30,559 nucleotides of DNA from a virus. Taxonomy: Duplodnaviria > Caudoviricetes. The notes under the pieces are model-generated. The model was not told the origin of the DNA, made no database searches, and saw only the letters and a program-made list of their open reading frames with translations. The number at the start of each line of letters is the position of its first letter. Position 1 is the first letter of the stretch. The stretch spans positions 1 through 30,559 of the IMG/VR virus record IMGVR_UViG_3300017778_002569; one strand, 5' to 3'. This document shows positions 18,410 through 26,673 of this stretch, piece by piece. The position numbers and the translations under genes were made by a program.

Positions 18410-19775
18410 AACAGATTTTTCCAACACAAGGTTTGATGGTGTAATGGCGGCAGGTTGGGTCCGTGATTTAGAAAGCTCCGATAGTCGAATACACAAAGAA
18501 AAAGTAATCGAAAAAGCCCTGATGGCTGCCAAACTTGGCAGTTCCGATGCACAGGCCTTTTTGTTTAATTGTTTTCAGGCTTACAATCCTTTTTACACAT
18601 TTAATGTTAAACAAGTGCCAGACACGCAAGGACTTACTGGGCGACCTAATCCATGGCCACGTTTTTGGGCCATGCTAGAAGACCTACGCACTCGGGGTAT
18701 CACCGGCCATCGTGCTCGTGACAAGATCCAAGAATGTGCGGAAGAGTTTGACAGCGATGAATGGAACAACTTGTGTGCTCGTGTGATTCGTAAAGATTTA
18801 CGCTGTGGCATCAGTGAAAAAACACTAAACAAAGTGCTGGGGAAAACTGAATACAAGATTCCGGTATTTACTTGTCAGCTAGCGCAGGACTCTACAGACC
18901 AACCTAAAAAGTTGCGTGGCACCAAGCGCCTTGAATGTAAACTAGACGGGGTACGTGTGCTAGCAGTGGTGTCTGGTGCTACCTGTACGTTATACAGTCG
19001 CAATGGCAAGGTGTTTGAAAACTTCCCACAAATTGCCGAAGCTGTATTAGATGCTCGTAAGCACTTTCAACATGGTCGTGGCACCGGAGGACATTTTGTG
19101 TTAGATGGTGAGATTGTGGGAGAAACCTTTCAAAAGCTCATGAAGCAAGCACACCGCAAAAGTGATGCCAAAACAGATGGCATGGTATATCATATCTTTG
19201 ACATCATCCCATTAGACGCACTCAAAGAAGGTCACTGCAATCTACAACAATACAAACGCCTGGAGTGGCTCGACAGTGCCAAAATCGCACTAGAAGAGAC
19301 AGATTGCCTGCGCATCATGCCTGGCATGGATGTGGACTTGGACACAGCCGAAGGCCATGATGTCATGCGACGCTTTGCTGAAGCAAGTGTGGAGCAAGGA
19401 TACGAAGGCATCATGATTAAGAGCGTTGATGCCCCGTACGAGTGTAAACGCAGTGACTTTTGGATGAAATGGAAGCCCACAATCACAGTCGATCTGAACA
19501 TTGTGGGATTTGAAGAGGGCACTGGTCGCAATCTAGGCCGCCTGGGTGCTATAATTTGTGAAGGAGTCGACAATGACAAAACTATTCGTGTTAATGTTGG
19601 TAGCGGTTTGTCTGATAGCAATCGCGATGAGTATTGGCTCAACCGGGATACACTTCTTGGTAACGTGGTTGAGGTCGAAGCAGACGCAGTTACCCAAAAC
19701 CAAGACGGATCATACAGTTTGAGATTCCCTCGCTTTTTGCGATTCCGTGGATTCGAACCAGGCGAAAAGTTATAA
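18402..19775 (+). CDS. ATP-dependent DNA ligase
   Basis: Motif I ECKLDGVR; SRNGK, VLDGEI, FDII, YEGIMIK, KWKP, VGSGLSD and SLRFPRF. Confidence 0.96.
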   Translation: MNETDFSNTRFDGVMAAGWVRDLESSDSRIHKEKVIEKALMAAKLGSSDAQAFLFNCFQAYNPFYTFNVKQVPDTQGLTGRPNPWPRFWAMLEDLRTRGITGHRARDKIQECAEEFDSDEWNNLCARVIRKDLRCGISEKTLNKVLGKTEYKIPVFTCQLAQDSTDQPKKLRGTKRLECKLDGVRVLAVVSGATCTLYSRNGKVFENFPQIAEAVLDARKHFQHGRGTGGHFVLDGEIVGETFQKLMKQAHRKSDAKTDGMVYHIFDIIPLDALKEGHCNLQQYKRLEWLDSAKIALEETDCLRIMPGMDVDLDTAEGHDVMRRFAEASVEQGYEGIMIKSVDAPYECKRSDFWMKWKPTITVDLNIVGFEEGTGRNLGRLGAIICEGVDNDKTIRVNVGSGLSDSNRDEYWLNRDTLLGNVVEVEADAVTQNQDGSYSLRFPRFLRFRGFEPGEKL

Positions 19776-19788
19776 AATTTAGATCAGC

Positions 19789-20658
19789 ATGAAAAAACAA
19801 AATATAAAATGGTTGCATGCTGAAATTAGCACTCGGTGTAATGCTTGGTGCCCTGGGTGCCAACGAAACAACAATGGATATGGGCTATCAGATTTATTCG
19901 TTGAGCAAGACTTACAACTAACAGACTATCAACTCATACTTGACGATTTTGATTATTTAGAAGGCATTCAATTTTGCGGCAACTTTGGTGATCCAATTGC
20001 GCACAATGATTTTCTAAGTATAGTAGAGCATTCTAAACTGCATTGTGACAAGATACAAATTCACACCAATGGTGGATTACGATCACAATCCTGGTGGAAG
20101 GAACTTGCTGAACTTTTACGTGGCCACGAACACGATGTATGGTTTGGCATTGACGGCATAGGTTCAGTTCATGAACAATATCGTCAGGGCACCAGCTATG
20201 AAAAAGTTTTAGAAAATGCTCGGGCTTTTATATCTGCTGGCGGGACTGCTACCTGGCAGTTCATCCCATTCAAACACAACGAACATCAGATCAAGGATTG
20301 CATTCGTCTCAGTCAAGACTTAGGATTTTACAAATTTAAACTGGTAAAATCGTTTAGAGAAGATCAGACACAAGTGAGACATTGGCGCACTGGTGAGCAT
20401 CTATTTGATCTAGAAGCAGCCGATGTTTACAAAAAGTTGTTTTTCCATCCTACTAAATCATATGTTGATCCTGCACAGTGTTTGCATCTTTCCATGCCTA
20501 GTGTGTATTTGCATGCAACTGGAAAAATTAGTGCTTGTTGTTATTTTAGTCAAAGTCAACACTATGATGATTTGCAAACATTTTTGTCTCAAGTTAATAT
20601 ATCTAGTGAATTGACAAAATCACCACACCCAGTTTGCCTAAAAAACTGCGGATCATAG
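19789..20658 (+). CDS. Radical SAM protein with C-terminal Cys-rich (SPASM/twitch-like) region
   Basis: CNAWCPGC motif; GNFGDP, HTNGG and FGIDG; C-terminal C..ACC..C...C. Confidence 0.9.
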   Translation: MKKQNIKWLHAEISTRCNAWCPGCQRNNNGYGLSDLFVEQDLQLTDYQLILDDFDYLEGIQFCGNFGDPIAHNDFLSIVEHSKLHCDKIQIHTNGGLRSQSWWKELAELLRGHEHDVWFGIDGIGSVHEQYRQGTSYEKVLENARAFISAGGTATWQFIPFKHNEHQIKDCIRLSQDLGFYKFKLVKSFREDQTQVRHWRTGEHLFDLEAADVYKKLFFHPTKSYVDPAQCLHLSMPSVYLHATGKISACCYFSQSQHYDDLQTFLSQVNISSELTKSPHPVCLKNCGS

Positions 20659-20687
20659 TTGACATTTTCATTCTAATACCTTATAAT
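20659..20687 (+). promoter_or_regulatory. Perfect-consensus sigma70 promoter
   Basis: TTGACA (20659-20664), N17, TATAAT (20682-20687). Confidence 0.9.
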
Positions 20688-20693
20688 ACAAGG

Positions 20694-20940
20694 GCAGTGA
20701 ATGGGAAATATGGAGGGGGGTTAAGGGTTTGACAGCATGTAACCATGCAGTTGATCTCCGTGGCACAAGTAACCGTAACTCCTCAAGGTGTGGCACCTCC
20801 GGACTTGGATAGCCGCTGTGAAATAACCAAGTTAAAACCAACCAACTACGTACTTGCTGAGTACCTCTAGGGTTGGGAGTAAGCCTCAACAGGGGCGGCA
20901 AGGTGTAAAGCATTTGTAATGTATCAACTCGGAGATCTCT
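20694..20940 (+). ncRNA. Candidate structured non-coding RNA or long structured leader
   Basis: ORF-free gap after a consensus promoter, with several complementary segments including the closing helix GATCTCCG (20753-20760) / CGGAGATC (20930-20937). Confidence 0.6.
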
Positions 20941-20948
20941 AATTTATT

Positions 20949-21245
20949 ATGTCGAAGTCACTTGATCCACTTAAAGAAACGACCCAGGATCTGCATCGTT
21001 TTTGGTTCTTGCTTAGTAATGAAACGCAGTGGTATGCTGTCATGGCCGAATGTCGAACATGGTTTGGAAAAAATTGGAAGTGCCAAAACAAGGTACGACG
21101 CAAACTAGAATCGTACAGTCATCGGCATGACCGTAAACCGCAATTGATCTGGTTCGAAGTGCCCGATACTAAGTTTGCTACATGGGTATCGGTTAAACAT
21201 AGCATACAAGTGCATAGTGATTCCAAACTAAATGCCCATAAATAA
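20949..21245 (+). CDS. Hypothetical protein (98 aa)
   Basis: W-rich ORF; possible SD GGAG at 20931 lies inside the RNA closing helix. Confidence 0.65.
   Translation: MSKSLDPLKETTQDLHRFWFLLSNETQWYAVMAECRTWFGKNWKCQNKVRRKLESYSHRHDRKPQLIWFEVPDTKFATWVSVKHSIQVHSDSKLNAHK
21238..21244 (+). promoter_or_regulatory. Late promoter (ATAAATA)
   Basis: Seven nt before ATG 21252; no SD. Confidence 0.55.
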
Positions 21246-21251
21246 TTTGTT

Positions 21252-22727
21252 ATGCTACTGACATATCTAATGCTGTTTGTGGCCCTGTGCTTGAGTGCAG
21301 TGGCCGCTTTTTATTCTATAGTGGGACTGACTGCTATTTTTGCCGCGGCTGTGATCCCAATTATTATCATGGGCAGTATTTTAGAAGTGGCCAAACTTGT
21401 TGTAACAGTTTGGTTACACGAATATTGGAAGCAGGTCAAGCTTACCATGAAGCTGTATCTTGTGCCGGCTGTGGCTATGCTTATGCTAATTACCAGCATG
21501 GGCATCTTTGGATTCTTATCAAAAGCACATCTGGACCAAAGCATAGTGTCTGGTGATGTGCAAGCCAAAATTGCCATCTACGATGAGAAAATTCAAACAG
21601 AAAAGGAAAACATAGATGTTAATCGCAAAGCTCTCAAACAAATGGATGAGGCAGTGGACCAAGTTATGGGTCGCAGTTCGGACGAAAAAGGGGCGGACAA
21701 AGCAGTTGCCGTACGCAGAGCCCAGCAAAAAGAACGTGCTCGCCTCCTTGCAGACATTGCAGAAGCTCAAAAGAAAATCACTGTACTCAACGAACAACGT
21801 GCGCCAATTGCGGCCGAAGTACGCAAGGTAGAAGCTGAAGTTGGCCCAATCAAGTACATTGCCGCACTGATATACGAAGACAATCCTGATACCAATGTGT
21901 TAGAAAAGGCAGTACGTTGGGTTATCATTTTGCTTGTCATTGTGTTTGATCCTCTTGCTGTGATGATGTTGCTGGCCGCAACAGAATCCATGGCCTGGGA
22001 ACGTCGGCGACGCAACGAAGATCAACTAGCAATGAGCATTACACCACCGGACAAAAAAGATTTGCGACCTTTTACACCAGAAGAAATTGATGCACTAGAT
22101 AAGCAACCAAGACAAGATCCTAGCCCGCCTGGTTGGATGTTTGGCGAAGTTGCACAACCATATCCCATGAACGACCAAGAAGTTGAAGAAGTCATACAAG
22201 AATTTGATCGTACACGACACGCATACTTAGACAAGCCATTTGTACACTTTGAAAATCTCAAGCCCATGGTGCAACAGCCCGAACAAATCGAAGAAGTTGA
22301 CAATGAAGACGAAGACCCGGGACTTAAACAAGCACGTAGCCAATGGAAAATAGATAATCCGGGCAAAACTTTAAAAGAACAACGCCAATTATTCGAGCGT
22401 GGTGTTATAGATCATTTGCCTTGGGAAGACTATCTTGAATCTAAACACAAAAGTAGCGCGGATTTTGGTGCAGAATTTCCTAGCACAGCAGTCAAGGGCG
22501 ACATGTTTGTTCGCACAGACTATTTGCCTACCCGTTTGTACAAATACAATGGAAACAAATGGATAGATACAGACAAGACATTAACAGACAGATATGTGTA
22601 TAATACAGCTTACATTGATCATCTTATTTCTAAAATTGCTTCCGGTGAATATGATCTAGATCTATTGACCGATTCAGAACAGCAAGAAATCTCACAACGT
22701 TTAAATCAAAACACAACTAATGACTGA
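21252..22727 (+). CDS. Multi-pass membrane protein with long coiled coil (491 aa)
   Basis: Three or four N-terminal TM segments, a K/E/Q coiled coil, another TM (WVIILLVIVFDPLAVMMLLA), an acidic linker and a C-terminal KGDMFVRTDYLPTRLYKYNG domain. Confidence 0.75.
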   Translation: MLLTYLMLFVALCLSAVAAFYSIVGLTAIFAAAVIPIIIMGSILEVAKLVVTVWLHEYWKQVKLTMKLYLVPAVAMLMLITSMGIFGFLSKAHLDQSIVSGDVQAKIAIYDEKIQTEKENIDVNRKALKQMDEAVDQVMGRSSDEKGADKAVAVRRAQQKERARLLADIAEAQKKITVLNEQRAPIAAEVRKVEAEVGPIKYIAALIYEDNPDTNVLEKAVRWVIILLVIVFDPLAVMMLLAATESMAWERRRRNEDQLAMSITPPDKKDLRPFTPEEIDALDKQPRQDPSPPGWMFGEVAQPYPMNDQEVEEVIQEFDRTRHAYLDKPFVHFENLKPMVQQPEQIEEVDNEDEDPGLKQARSQWKIDNPGKTLKEQRQLFERGVIDHLPWEDYLESKHKSSADFGAEFPSTAVKGDMFVRTDYLPTRLYKYNGNKWIDTDKTLTDRYVYNTAYIDHLISKIASGEYDLDLLTDSEQQEISQRLNQNTTND

Positions 22728-23907
22728 TAAATTACACCATTGCAGTTTTTGCGGCAAAGAAAAAGACATTGTTACAAAACTTATAGTTAGTGATGCTGTT
22801 GCTATATGTAGTGAATGTGTAAATTTGTGCACCGAGTTATTACAGGATCCAGCACCATCTCTTTTGTTAAAGCTAGACAATGCAAAAATGGATCCAGTGC
22901 AACTTAAATCATATTTAGATCAGTATGTAATTGGACAAGATGCTGCCAAAATTATGTTGAGTGTGGCTATTGTCAATCACTACAAGCGAATCAACTGCAA
23001 AGACCCCGATAGAGAAATTACCAAAGCCAATATCTTGGTATTGGGCCCAACTGGATCGGGGAAAACCTTACTAGCCCGAACTGTGGCCAAATACTTGGAC
23101 GTACCATTTGCCATTGCTGATGCAACAAGCATTACAGAAGCAGGCTATGTTGGTGACGATGTTGAAAGCTTGATCAGTAGATTATTTGCTAACTCGGGCA
23201 ATGATGTTGAAAAAACACAGCATGGTATTGTGTTTGTTGATGAAATTGATAAAATTTCACGCAAAAGTGAATCAACATCAATCACACGTGATGTATCCGG
23301 TGAGGGTGTACAACAAGCATTGTTAAAAATGGTTGAGGGAACAGTTTGTCGTATTCCCACAAGTGGCGGTCGCAAGCATCCAGGTGGTGACATGGTTGAA
23401 ATTGACACCAAAAATATTTTGTTTATTGCCGGCGGCGCCTTTGTTGGGTTGGAAAAAATTATCAAGAATCGCACAGCTGGTACCAGTATTGGTTTTAACT
23501 CACCAGTATCACAGCCCAAAGACGTGCACTTAGATGAAGTTGTGCCTGATGATCTTGTGAAATTTGGATTGATACCTGAGTTCATTGGACGCTTTCCCAG
23601 TGTGGTCACACTAGAAGAGCTAGATCGCCCCAGCATGATTCGTATCCTTACTGAAGTTAAAAACAACTACATCGATCAATACCAATGGTTGTTTAAGCAA
23701 GATGCAGTAGAATTAAAATTCACAATCGATGCAATCGAAACCATGGTTGATCGTGCAACAGAATCAGGCACAGGTGCTAGAGCATTGCATACCGAAATTG
23801 AACATGCACTAATGCCCCATATGTTTCACTTGCGTGAATATCGCGAACGTGGCATCGATATGCTTGAATTAACATCTACAGATATCAATCAGCCCACCGC
23901 AAGGTAA
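22720..23907 (+). CDS. clpX: ATP-dependent Clp protease ATPase subunit ClpX
   Basis: CSFCG..ICSEC zinc domain, Walker A GPTGSGKT, GYVG pore loop, Walker B VFVDEIDK, RDVSGEGVQQ, RKH, IGF loop and GAR sensor 2. Confidence 0.96.
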   Translation: MTDKLHHCSFCGKEKDIVTKLIVSDAVAICSECVNLCTELLQDPAPSLLLKLDNAKMDPVQLKSYLDQYVIGQDAAKIMLSVAIVNHYKRINCKDPDREITKANILVLGPTGSGKTLLARTVAKYLDVPFAIADATSITEAGYVGDDVESLISRLFANSGNDVEKTQHGIVFVDEIDKISRKSESTSITRDVSGEGVQQALLKMVEGTVCRIPTSGGRKHPGGDMVEIDTKNILFIAGGAFVGLEKIIKNRTAGTSIGFNSPVSQPKDVHLDEVVPDDLVKFGLIPEFIGRFPSVVTLEELDRPSMIRILTEVKNNYIDQYQWLFKQDAVELKFTIDAIETMVDRATESGTGARALHTEIEHALMPHMFHLREYRERGIDMLELTSTDINQPTAR

Positions 23908-24143
23908 TGTATATTGAATTTAAAATTGAGGCCCACGAGTTTACACATAAACATGCGTCTATATCATTGGCGTTGATAGACTGGGGTAATCGGCACAATG
24001 TACAATACAAAGATAAAACTATCAACCGTAACATAAGAGTCACATTTGATGATGATAGACATTATACTTTGTTTGCACTTACTTGGAATCCAGGATTTAG
24101 AGCAAATTATCGTGTTATACGTGACCTAAATAACAAAGTATAA
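23907..24143 (+). CDS. Hypothetical protein (78 aa)
   Basis: TAATG coupling to clpX; YTLFALTW motif. Confidence 0.65.
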   Translation: MYIEFKIEAHEFTHKHASISLALIDWGNRHNVQYKDKTINRNIRVTFDDDRHYTLFALTWNPGFRANYRVIRDLNNKV

Positions 24144-24160
24144 AATAATTTTCGTGTATA

Positions 24161-24230
24161 ATAAATACTGTTGTAGTGCCCATGGTGGGGCTACACTGAT
24201 AGTCAACTTGCTTAATAGGAGAATGACATG
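24161..24230 (+). promoter_or_regulatory. Late promoter plus ROSE-like RNA thermometer 5'UTR of hsp20
   Basis: ATAAATA at 24161-24167; hairpin 24172-24195; SD-sequestering hairpin GTCA-a-CTTGCT-taat-AGGAG-aa-TGAC immediately before the ATG. Confidence 0.65.
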
Positions 24231-24659
24231 ACTAAAATCACATCTTTTGATCTCGCCCCCTTCTACCGTAACACGGTAGGTATCGATCGTTTGTTCGACC
24301 GCATTACTCGTCAGATTGATGCAGCCGCCTCAGGCAATTATCCCCCATATGACATTGTTGTTACTGGTGACAGCACATACGAAATTCGTGTGGCAGCCGC
24401 TGGCTTCCGTTTGGAAGAAGTCAACATTGAATACCATGAGGGACAACTGGTTGTAACTGGTACCAAGGACGAAACACCCGATCATGAATACTTGCATCAC
24501 GGTATTAGCAATCGTTCTTGGGTTCGCTCATGGACTTTGGCTGACTATGTAGAGGTCAAGGCTGCTGTAATGAAAGACGGCATCTTGACAATCAAGCTTG
24601 AGCGCATTGTTCCTGAAACAATGAAACCTAAAAAAATTGAGATTAGCTATCAATCTTGA
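24228..24659 (+). CDS. Small heat-shock protein Hsp20 (IbpA-like)
   Basis: GIDRLFD, NYPPYDI, AAAGF, YLHHGIS.R, DGILTIKLER and C-terminal IEI motif. Confidence 0.95.
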   Translation: MTKITSFDLAPFYRNTVGIDRLFDRITRQIDAAASGNYPPYDIVVTGDSTYEIRVAAAGFRLEEVNIEYHEGQLVVTGTKDETPDHEYLHHGISNRSWVRSWTLADYVEVKAAVMKDGILTIKLERIVPETMKPKKIEISYQS

Positions 24660-24666
24660 TCTCTAA

Positions 24667-24698
24667 GTAAATAAACTGTGAGGGGTTCGCCCCTCACA
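24667..24698 (+). promoter_or_regulatory. Late promoter (GTAAATA) followed by a 9-bp UUCG hairpin
   Basis: TGTGAGGGG-TTCG-CCCCTCACA at 24677-24698, with no U-tract after it. Confidence 0.55.
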
Positions 24699-24715
24699 CT
24701 AACACAGGTAGCTAT

Positions 24716-25018
24716 ATGGCAGACACAAAATCTAAAACACGCACAAACTTAAATTTGCAAGAACCACCAATGTTTCGAGTTATCTATATCAACGATAATC
24801 AAACAGCCATGAACTTTGTAGTTGATAGTTTGATCGAACACTTTGCGCATACTCTGGTGACTGCCGAGAAGATTACTGTAGATATTCACGAAACAGGAGC
24901 CGCCACTGTGGCAGTACTGCCTTATGAAATTGCCGAACAAAAAGGTATAGAAGTCACCTTGTCAGCACGTAGTGAAGGTTATCCATTGCAAATCAAACTA
25001 GAACCCAACACTGTTTAA
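24716..25018 (+). CDS. clpS: Clp protease adaptor ClpS
   Basis: EPPMFRVIYIND..T.M.FV, IHETG.A.V, EIAEQK and YPLQ..LEP. Confidence 0.92.
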   Translation: MADTKSKTRTNLNLQEPPMFRVIYINDNQTAMNFVVDSLIEHFAHTLVTAEKITVDIHETGAATVAVLPYEIAEQKGIEVTLSARSEGYPLQIKLEPNTV

Positions 25019-25027
25019 AAGGACCAA

Positions 25028-25384
25028 ATGCATATTGTAATAGGTACAGAAAATGTACAAAAAATTCAAGACAACTACACAGTATTGGAATTAGACACTG
25101 TGCGATTCTCTCCCGATACAGATCCTGTCACAGCATACTGCATTGTAGAAAAAATGTCTGTTGAAGAAATGTTCACAGTTGACCGCTATCGAGAACTACA
25201 TCAAAATCTCATGCGAAATTATCGACTGGCCAATTGGAAGTTCTGCAAAGATGCATTAGAACATCTACAAGGGCGTTGGTCCGGCGAACTGGATAGTTTT
25301 TATCAAAGTCTTGCGCAACGAATTGAGCAATACCAAACAAAACAAGTTGATCAGGCCTGGGACGGTGTAGTAGACCGTTGCTGA
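25028..25384 (+). CDS. Hypothetical protein (118 aa)
   Basis: SD AAGGA; YTVLELDT and WDGV motifs. Confidence 0.7.
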   Translation: MHIVIGTENVQKIQDNYTVLELDTVRFSPDTDPVTAYCIVEKMSVEEMFTVDRYRELHQNLMRNYRLANWKFCKDALEHLQGRWSGELDSFYQSLAQRIEQYQTKQVDQAWDGVVDRC

Positions 25385-26673
25385 CACCATTGCAAAATTC
25401 TTGTTAGATCTTTTCTAGAAATACCAAGTTCCTCAGCAATAATGCTATTGCTTAATGAAGTTCGTGTGTGCCGCTCTTTCAACCAATTTTGCCCATTGCA
25501 ATGTTGTTGATGCACTTGCGCTTGCGCAGACATTAGATTGTCCCATAACTCATTTTTTACTTGATCAGCAAACTCTGCACTAAAAAAGTGTCTACGATTG
25601 TGTTGACAAATTTTTAACATTTCAGTTTGCTGTTGGTGTCTTGCGTGTGGCGACAACTTGCTAATACCAATCATAACATCAACAATGGCTTCTAACCGTT
25701 TCAACGGGTCAACTACTGTATCATAACTTTCATCAATAATATTATTAAAGGTTTTAAATCCATAACTTCTGAGATATTCCAGGCTACCATGAGTAGCAGC
25801 CAAGATAAAAGGTTTGCCACATGCAATTGGACGCAGTATTTTTTCAGTCAAATACAACCTATCATCATCAAATAAGGTTTCTAGCACCACGTCAATTGCA
25901 CACTGCGTGTAATGCTCAATATCATAACTTGCGCTACTGTGACTTGAAATAGTCACCGAGTGGAATTGACTCAAATCGTGCACTCGAAAGTCTTGATTAT
26001 TGTATTGATGTTGTGTATAATGAACATTGTCAGTATCGCAAAAACTAGTTCTAGAACAATTGTCTAGATTACGGTCAATTAACATTTCTAAAAATTTAAG
26101 TCGATATTCGCGGGTGCCGTCCCAGGCCCGCGAATATATGTTAAAGTTATATTGATATTCGGTATGAGACGAGTTGAGTCTAGGATCATGTTCAGCAAAT
26201 CTGTACCAGTCTCGAGCTATCATGGCATGACTCCACCAGTAAGCTGGGACAAAATTTTGTTGGGTGTATTTGTCTAAGTTTGACGATCGTTGCTCAGTGT
26301 GCAATAAAATGCAACAATCATTCATGGTTGCAGGCACAACTGATGCAAGATTTAATTTAGATAAGTGTTCCCAGAATTCTTGTGTTGCATGTTCTGTTCG
26401 GTATTTGGGAATGTTTGGCCACTGAACAGAACATAAAGATTGAAGTTGCTGCCAGTTGAGATTGTCATAACGGGCATGATCAAGTGGTTCTTGATCATAA
26501 CAAATTACCGGAACAAGATGCATGTTGTCGATCCAACTACGTTGTGCATGCCTTGTATCGCTTTGATCAAGGCATTCAAGATTTTTAGACCCATGGGGAT
26601 AAAAGCGATAAATTAATAGATCGTGGGAAATTCCACTTATCCAGTCATACAAATTATCTATAGGAATATGCAT
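25351..26673 (-). CDS. Hypothetical protein, glycosyltransferase-like (GT-B-type C-terminal motif)
   Basis: The only long minus-strand ORF (440 aa). VVLET...YLTEKILRPIACGKPFI resembles the E..Y.TEK donor-binding motif of GT10-like enzymes. Confidence 0.6.
   Translation of the reverse strand: MHIPIDNLYDWISGISHDLLIYRFYPHGSKNLECLDQSDTRHAQRSWIDNMHLVPVICYDQEPLDHARYDNLNWQQLQSLCSVQWPNIPKYRTEHATQEFWEHLSKLNLASVVPATMNDCCILLHTEQRSSNLDKYTQQNFVPAYWWSHAMIARDWYRFAEHDPRLNSSHTEYQYNFNIYSRAWDGTREYRLKFLEMLIDRNLDNCSRTSFCDTDNVHYTQHQYNNQDFRVHDLSQFHSVTISSHSSASYDIEHYTQCAIDVVLETLFDDDRLYLTEKILRPIACGKPFILAATHGSLEYLRSYGFKTFNNIIDESYDTVVDPLKRLEAIVDVMIGISKLSPHARHQQQTEMLKICQHNRRHFFSAEFADQVKNELWDNLMSAQAQVHQQHCNGQNWLKERHTRTSLSNSIIAEELGISRKDLTRILQWCQQRSTTPSQA

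Follow-up and report, generated by a model that had tools for sequence, protein, structure and literature searches.

Translational operators and riboswitches, such as the alpha-operon pseudoknot, lie in the 5' leader and cover a translation start with their fold. The RNA described here resembles them in its 5' leader position and in having a start codon inside its helices, while it differs from them in being larger, closed end to end and equipped with self-complementary loops, and in that no alternative fold or ligand was identified for it. Another point of reference is provided by the ornate non-coding RNAs OLE, GOLLD and ROOL, which, in the available sections of PMC12286853, PMC3413148 and PMC12054373, have many helices, pseudoknots and an unknown function, as is the case here, and which share with our RNA palindrome switching as a sign of intermolecular kissing. 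The same sections present GOLLD and ROOL as phage-borne, and OLE as an abundant, stable RNA adjoining the gene of its partner protein. By contrast, the present RNA has no Rfam match, is ~300 nt in length rather than 600-800 nt, and overlaps a translated start. The manA RNA is, in the accessible part of bioRxiv 10.64898/2026.07.01.735769, a putative cis element in phage 5' leaders that forms closed RNA-only oligomers by kissing loops; the RNA here is larger, has no Rfam match, and occurs in different phages. Finally, the raiA motif (ModT) possesses two pseudoknots like the present RNA and, according to the available part of PMC11706538, is abundant and stable and was tied first to a neighbouring gene but acts in trans. 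ModT has its own termination sites, whereas the RNA here ends 3' inside an ORF and has no Rfam match. The manA and ModT precedents indicate that a leader-like position does not settle function.

The locus was found in a 30,559-nt stretch of DNA from a virus of the Caudoviricetes (IMG/VR record IMGVR_UViG_3300017778_002569), hereafter called the window, which corresponds to ~9% of the genome by completeness estimate, with relatives of up to 315-375 kb. Genes encoding ribonucleotide reductase, Fe-S assembly proteins and DNA ligase are among those of the window (Pfam/PHROG), and a radical SAM protein gene lies directly upstream of the RNA element. One long minus-strand ORF (25351-26673, 440 aa), with no match in Pfam or PHROG, interrupts an otherwise plus-strand window. 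The RNA is preceded by a sigma70-type promoter with perfect −35 and −10 boxes and a 17-nt spacer (20659..20687, + strand), which the first-pass annotation had singled out as the only perfect one; a search for TTGACA-N16-18-TATAAT indeed returned this single match in the window (0.03 expected). Across the family loci the gene upstream of the RNA differs while the promoter is kept, with a −10 box matching at 5-6 of 6 positions ahead of 145 of 149 members and a first G located 7 nt past that box in 127 of 149. The window promoter is atypical of its own (long) subtype, as a perfect −35 box precedes 6/43 long-subtype RNAs against 92/106 short-subtype ones, and most long-subtype promoters have no good −35; at these, for example at L245, L257 and L273, a terminator-like hairpin occupies the −35 place together with an extended −10-like box.

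Consistent with the earlier reading, no plus-strand ORF of at least 50 aa occurs within 20659-20948. An antisense 81-aa ORF (20668-20913) was rejected as a gene, being not conserved and broken in the nearest relative; antisense ORFs of at least 75 aa occur in just 7 of 57 representatives. The element had also been placed just upstream of a ClpX/Hsp20/ClpS module. This module is present, but the gene directly under the RNA encodes a basic 98-aa protein (pI 9.7; 20949..21245, +) and lies two genes before ClpX. It is followed at 21252..25018 (+) by genes for a 491-aa protein with four hydrophobic segments, a ClpX-like ATPase, a 78-aa ORF, Hsp20 and ClpS, a run whose spacing suggests co-transcription. 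No terminator-like site was detected on the plus strand between 20994 and 21476.

Covariation, searches of Rfam that gave no match and contigs from RNA runs together support a conserved structured RNA outside the catalogued families behind this promoter. The predicted element runs from the putative +1 to the end of a closing helix, P1 (20694..20994, +). Its size is thus ~300 nt instead of the ~240 nt first proposed, and its 3' limit, previously set ahead of ORF 20949, moves ~46 nt into that ORF. Homologues were collected using two downstream proteins and RNA patterns, resulting in 398 loci, with the window's own record (L237) excluded from every count. The 98-aa gene was present in 311 of these loci and an RNA match in 279, and 150 distinct full-length RNAs from related large freshwater phages were obtained; rows were dropped for 11 loci that could not be excised, 6 more that could not be segmented, and the mis-bounded L370. 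The RNAs fall into two subtypes, a short one of ~230-285 nt and a long one of ~285-303 nt to which the window belongs, and the window reaches 91 bits with a model made from the short subtype. Between the window and its nearest relative, the RNA is identical at 288/303 positions compared with 206/252 for the body of the ORF. Among 142 members, 54 positions are at least 95% conserved, many of them in junctions, although this core is conserved partly by construction as the anchors used for cutting out members were taken from those positions.

Matches in cellular genomes were confined to two contigs, both in one Haliscomenobacter MAG, and these are probably binned phage DNA. A pattern scan for the long subtype gave 65 matches, 9 of them real and 56 due to chance. 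BLAST of the RNA and of the 98-aa protein against 50,697 GenBank phage records gave no match. Four cultured jumbo phages carry a remote homologue of the 491-aa protein; the RNA had no match in them apart from one 52-nt piece at E 0.26, and neither upstream ORF of the two compared is homologous to the 98-aa protein. These searches thus yielded no cultured model. A partial match of family model R2 in G003 (46 nt, 15.8 bits) was treated as noise. In Rfam, positions 19500-22000 of the window gave only a 59-nt osmY match (E 0.38) outside the element, and 11 homologous loci gave no match in Rfam 15 at E up to 5. No description of the RNA was found in the literature: PMC9723584 and PMC10914622 do not mention it in the parts examined, and the motifs and three contig ids had no match in four supplements of PMC10690425, a source that lists about ten thousand anonymous viral candidates and, as its supplements were covered in part, may contain a fragment of it. 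We regard the RNA as a new class among the large ornate phage RNAs, which are themselves a known kind, and the unusual feature of this class is that its 3' domain doubles as a translated start region.

Known identities were also considered. A tmRNA was rejected because ARAGORN found 0 genes, Rfam gave no match and the model has neither a T arm nor a CCA end, and a 6S RNA because the multibranched, pseudoknotted model contrasts with a single rod with a central bubble and again has no Rfam match. A retron msr-msd was likewise dropped, as no reverse transcriptase was found by Pfam among the 42 ORFs of the window, a stretch small enough relative to the genome for a distant one to be possible. RNase P RNA, judged by its Rfam consensus, is similar in size and arranges several helices in a similar order about a long-range P4, while the present RNA differs in having no crossing P2, no specificity domain and different conserved motifs. 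Searches of RF00010, RF00373 and RF02357 against the window at E up to 10 gave no match and no initial candidate either, family models R1 and R2 did not score true RNase P RNA, and a helix crossing P4 in the manner of P2 was absent from both the covarying pairs and the helix scan, with P4 motifs differing as well. Every membership test run for RNase P RNA came out against it.

The comparative model comprises ~15 helices and two pseudoknots with strong covariation. When every pair of alignment columns was scored, blind to structure, against our own tree-based null, 12 of 33,411 pairs in the short subtype reached E<=0.05, all of them canonical, and a single one of 39,621 did so in the long subtype. 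This pair, 20791-20969, revealed the long-range helix P4; no other pair covaries as strongly in the long subtype, and in the short subtype this pair covaries too. Using plain MAFFT alignments, the model pairs 80.8% of cells in 24 long members (70.7% in shuffles, none of 500 as high), with 211 two-sided changes versus 88, and 92.7% of cells in 34 short members (81.7% in shuffles, again none of 500 as high), with 271 versus 79; these shuffle controls overstate the agreement because the sequences tested are those from which the model was derived, and the structure-blind scan and a cognate duplex test are less biased.

All helices are given on the plus strand. P1 (5' strands within 20694..20705) connects the predicted +1 with the 3' end through 20694-97/20991-94 and 20702-05/20983-86 (100% and 96.9% paired in long members), with compensatory changes in both subtypes and agreement in the cognate duplex test, and the first bases of the RNA thereby pair with codons 12-16 of the 98-aa ORF. 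The 5' arm (20713..20784) contains P2 (20713-18/20779-84), P3 (20719-23/20770-74) and a tip hairpin. It is well supported in the short subtype and only 55-60% paired in the long subtype, where the MAFFT alignment is poor, but the long-subtype arm passed the cognate duplex test (0/5000 permutations as good); it is the least certain part of the long-subtype model. PK1 pairs an internal-loop strand (20762-64) with 20883-85 and is near-invariant in the long subtype, hence the little covariation there. P4 (20790..20793 with 20967-70, the latter in ORF codons 7-8) is 100% paired in either alignment and encloses a junction from which P5, P10 and the P11/P12 arm emanate. In the central domain (20794..20905), P5 (20794-98/20901-05) carries P8 (20802-08/20827-33), an A-run (20834-37), P9 (20838-43/20871-76) with P9b (20850-54/20860-64) and, in the long subtype, PK2 (20812-16/20895-99). 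The 3' domain (20910..20966) holds the start codon of the ORF and consists of P10 (20910-14/20918-22), P11 (20923-27/20962-66) and P12 (20934-36/20951-53). A conserved single-stranded junction (20971..20982) then separates P4 from P1. A near-invariant AGG at 20786-20788 can pair with either of two near-invariant pyrimidine runs (20937-20940 or 20970-20972), and no variation discriminates between them.

Several of these helices had been read by eye in the first-pass annotation, and every complementarity it listed is present in the sequence. P8, P9, P9b and the loop pseudoknot PK2 were among them and are retained as conserved. By contrast, conservation does not support the hairpin at 20735-48, the proposed closing helix 20753-60/20930-37, the helices 20765-70/20912-17 and 20778-82/20876-80, or the hairpin at 20786-98; tested jointly, these five paired in 56.9% of cells compared with 57.2% after shuffling, and 323 of 500 shuffles were as high. 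The helix 20753-60/20930-37 does belong to the minimum-energy fold of the window sequence itself, yet it failed a cognate-versus-cross duplex test (2538/5000 permutations as good), and its overlapping alternative 20749-55/20923-29 was paired in 37/113 cells. The switch that had been suggested, with this closing helix over the GGAG at 20931-34 exchanging with the alternative, is therefore not conserved. Our helix scan found no conserved alternative helix with covariation, the competing helices being composed of invariant bases only. Folding energy was within chance of shuffled controls (z of +0.91, −1.14, −0.97 and −1.8, the last from 40 shuffles), and the minimum-energy fold of the window (−89 kcal/mol) lies below the nested comparative model (−64.7 kcal/mol, pseudoknots uncounted). 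The case for an RNA thus rests on covariation among homologues and not on energy; the single sequence alone could not uphold it. Of the two functions first put forward, a non-coding RNA and a switchable leader, both remain live readings, while the particular switch is not upheld.

The overlap between RNA and ORF was then compared between subtypes. Residues 1-15 of the 98-aa protein overlap the RNA, and the predicted ferredoxin/ACT-like alpha-beta fold starts at residue 16. Fold, family and Atlas searches assigned the protein to no family, with no sequence match in Pfam or PDB, to the RNase P proteins Pop5/RnpA or otherwise, and only generic alpha-beta matches in fold searches (at best Z 6.5, with an rmsd of 2.3 across 64 residues). 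All 148 members examined carry an in-frame ATG within the RNA fold. In the long subtype, it lies ~15 codons before His16 in 42/42, within P12 and mostly without a Shine-Dalgarno sequence, whereas in the short subtype it lies ~26 codons before His16 in 104/106, mostly with a Shine-Dalgarno sequence, and the Shine-Dalgarno and ATG form the two strands of P10. Of 105 short members, 99 preserve the reading frame; in long members it is not preserved upstream of the ATG. Thus, the start has moved between P10 and P12 while the fold stayed. Codon usage at two residues, CTT for Leu8 in 147/148 members and ACG for Thr11 in 148/148, indicates a constraint at the RNA level, with the reservation that these codon motifs were also used to cut the members out. 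Given this layout, a ribosome on the 98-aa ORF would have to unfold the 3' half of the RNA. In L002, a dropped member, the ATG within P1 is the sole in-frame one, as the upstream ATG lies in another frame.

The tip of the P3 arm (20730..20752, +) carries a 6-nt palindrome in most relatives. Of 52 representatives, 47 have a Watson-Crick 6-mer palindrome there (18.1 expected), and five distinct palindromes alternate at this homologous site, while three control regions were at chance level; the P9 region showed 31 of 52 against 16.6 expected. Covariation across the dyad of the P3 tip amounted to 15 cells versus 4.5, a level reached by 0 of 500 shuffles. As such pairs are impossible within one loop, they call for a second copy of the RNA, and the same signature is taken as evidence of intermolecular kissing loops in OLE and GOLLD in the available part of PMC12286853. 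Palindrome switching in relatives thus suggests RNA-RNA kissing. In short-subtype RNAs such as L043:1990-2255 and L047:1845-2113, the P3 tip contains a further palindrome that varies, and this together with the often palindromic P9 loop could provide multiple kissing sites. The window is one of five exceptions, with only a G-U-closed wobble palindrome (20735-40), and its nearest relative L001 has the same tip, so that the window offers a natural case in which to study how self-pairing is lost.

Contigs assembled from 24 RNA runs cover 0.07-0.25 of a 1-kb stretch, and the eight runs examined all contain contigs ending near the base of P1, at 20983, 20983, 20983, 20987, 20980, 20980, 20980 and 20981, in or just past the P4-P1 junction. 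In these eight runs the element contigs lie within 20702-20987 with no loose end and no joint, and five full or near-full ones have 0 mismatches. Neither the ORF body (21005-21262) nor the upstream gene is covered in them, which is not proof of a hole, and two of the eight runs hold perfect pieces of downstream genes. The samples behind the runs were taken in 2017, 2018 and 2025 from lakes, rivers and estuaries, perhaps in four or five campaigns, and several runs may share one campaign. Assembled contigs carry no strand, true end or level and give a weak to moderate hint, and in that measure they point to a discrete RNA stopping at the base of P1.

The RNA and the 98-aa ORF are closely linked in relatives. 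Gene-independent pattern matches lie directly upstream of the ORF in 86 of 89 cases, and 277 of 279 loci with an RNA match hold the ORF. By contrast, 20 distinct upstream regions have no RNA, and in most of them a promoter of this type is followed after ~7 nt by an ATG or GTG, resulting in a leaderless gene; no full copy of the RNA was found elsewhere in six near-complete RNA-less genomes. On the protein tree, 13 RNA-less rows sit among long-subtype rows, which requires 6 changes of state on the best tree and no fewer than 3 if well-supported branches alone are counted; this tree was built from few columns, with a bootstrap that had yet to settle. The short subtype forms one side of a 97/90 branch, and this tracking of the protein tree by RNA subtype fits vertical descent with losses. 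Relatives thus lost the RNA at least three times. The RNA is dispensable: the gene manages without it, whereas the RNA was never encountered apart from the gene. Invariant residues of the 98-aa protein are kept in the 13 RNA-less rows, indicating that they are not there solely for binding the RNA. In L145 together with L071/L072, ~3 kb ending in a permease-like ORF splits the RNA and the 98-aa ORF from the 491-aa gene, showing that the RNA travels with the small ORF and not with the membrane gene. In the RNA-less loci L262-L266, a short ORF stands before the 98-aa gene instead of a promoter, and its first residues resemble codons 9-16 of the 98-aa protein. Small basic ORFs that look bS21-like by eye follow ClpX at L010:5129-5353, L018:5238-5462, L026:5224-5454 and L052:5228-5428. 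They occur with or without the RNA and the window has none at that place, leaving a parallel to OLE and bS21 unsupported.

We give an even chance to the interpretation that the element is a stable, self-associating phage non-coding RNA whose folding competes with translation. A doubly pseudoknotted RNA of ~300 nt would start at the +1 of the promoter and would persist free once its first bases have paired with ORF codons 12-16, and its palindromic loops would allow it to self-associate into a scaffold or decoy, like the ornate phage RNAs. The transcript would then have two exclusive fates. In one, a ribosome starts in the 3' domain and melts P12, P11, P4 and P1, presumably yielding an mRNA for the ClpX run. 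In the other, closure of the RNA comes first and conceals the start, and the untranslated tail would be lost and trimmed back to P1, a step we favour as no intrinsic terminator was found there. Damped downstream translation would be incidental or an additional function, and the basic 98-aa protein would be the first candidate partner. A stable RNA acting as a molecule agrees with the closed ends and invariant core, with the presence of two pseudoknots, with the switching of palindromes and the shift of the start, and with the discrete contig. By contrast, its fixed position, start overlap and losses fit a cis leader and count against such an RNA. In that case the fold would act purely in cis, burying the start of the 98-aa ORF and setting ClpX/Hsp20/ClpS output, and possibly a ligand (the 98-aa protein, heat or a metabolite) would stabilise or open it, with free RNA as the leftover OFF state. 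We hold this explanation, the main rival, to be possible but tentative. In addition to an overlap seen in all 148 members and a position never found elsewhere, the P10 strands formed by the short-subtype Shine-Dalgarno and ATG, the mostly leaderless genes behind the same kind of promoter in loss lineages and the basic nature of the 98-aa protein agree with it, and an OFF-state fragment would likewise accumulate as a stable piece. However, a leader does not account for palindrome covariation that requires a second RNA copy, no covarying alternative helix or nearby terminator was detected, ~15 helices and two pseudoknots exceed the need for hiding a start, and the protein's invariant residues persist in the 13 RNA-less rows.

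Two further explanations were weighed against the self-associating RNA. The element could be a ribozyme. It might, for instance, be distantly related to the catalytic domain of RNase P, having neither P2 nor a specificity domain, or it might process itself and thereby release a leaderless mRNA. Its helices follow an order (closing helix, arm, P4, P5 with two hairpins, A-run, hairpin) reminiscent of the RNase P consensus, as is the P4 3' strand ending in CUU near the 3' end; junction nucleotides are invariant, and the invariant ACG lies approximately at the leaderless start of RNA-less relatives, where the contigs also end. Random priming would probably give ends at an exposed junction too, and the contigs here contain no joints; with no RNase P match in either direction, no crossing P2, differing P4 motifs and no match to an Rfam ribozyme family, we consider catalysis unlikely. 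The same low standing applies to the more far-reaching proposal of a new-class phage catalytic RNA with a stripped RNase P-like helix order surrounding an invariant core, oligomeric, processing host or phage RNAs or itself, and sharing its 3' end with a gene. A selfish or passenger element, inserted between promoter and leaderless gene and kept for its own sake, could explain the patchy presence, with its 20 distinct RNA-less upstream regions and at least 3 state changes (6 on the best tree), but such an element would hardly be expected always at a single site with no adjoining mobility gene and no second copy, nor with a subtype that follows the protein tree, and we find it very improbable.

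Large ornate RNAs with unknown function are rare, and those described have yielded RNA-only cages and stress-response complexes. The present RNA is compact enough for direct transcription, probing and imaging, and its two subtypes and natural losses are available for comparison. Its layout, in which translation of the first gene must unfold the RNA, is unusual. A self-associating RNA at this position would show large lake phages giving their best host-type promoter to an RNA, and its study would show whether a leader and a free non-coding RNA can be one molecule.
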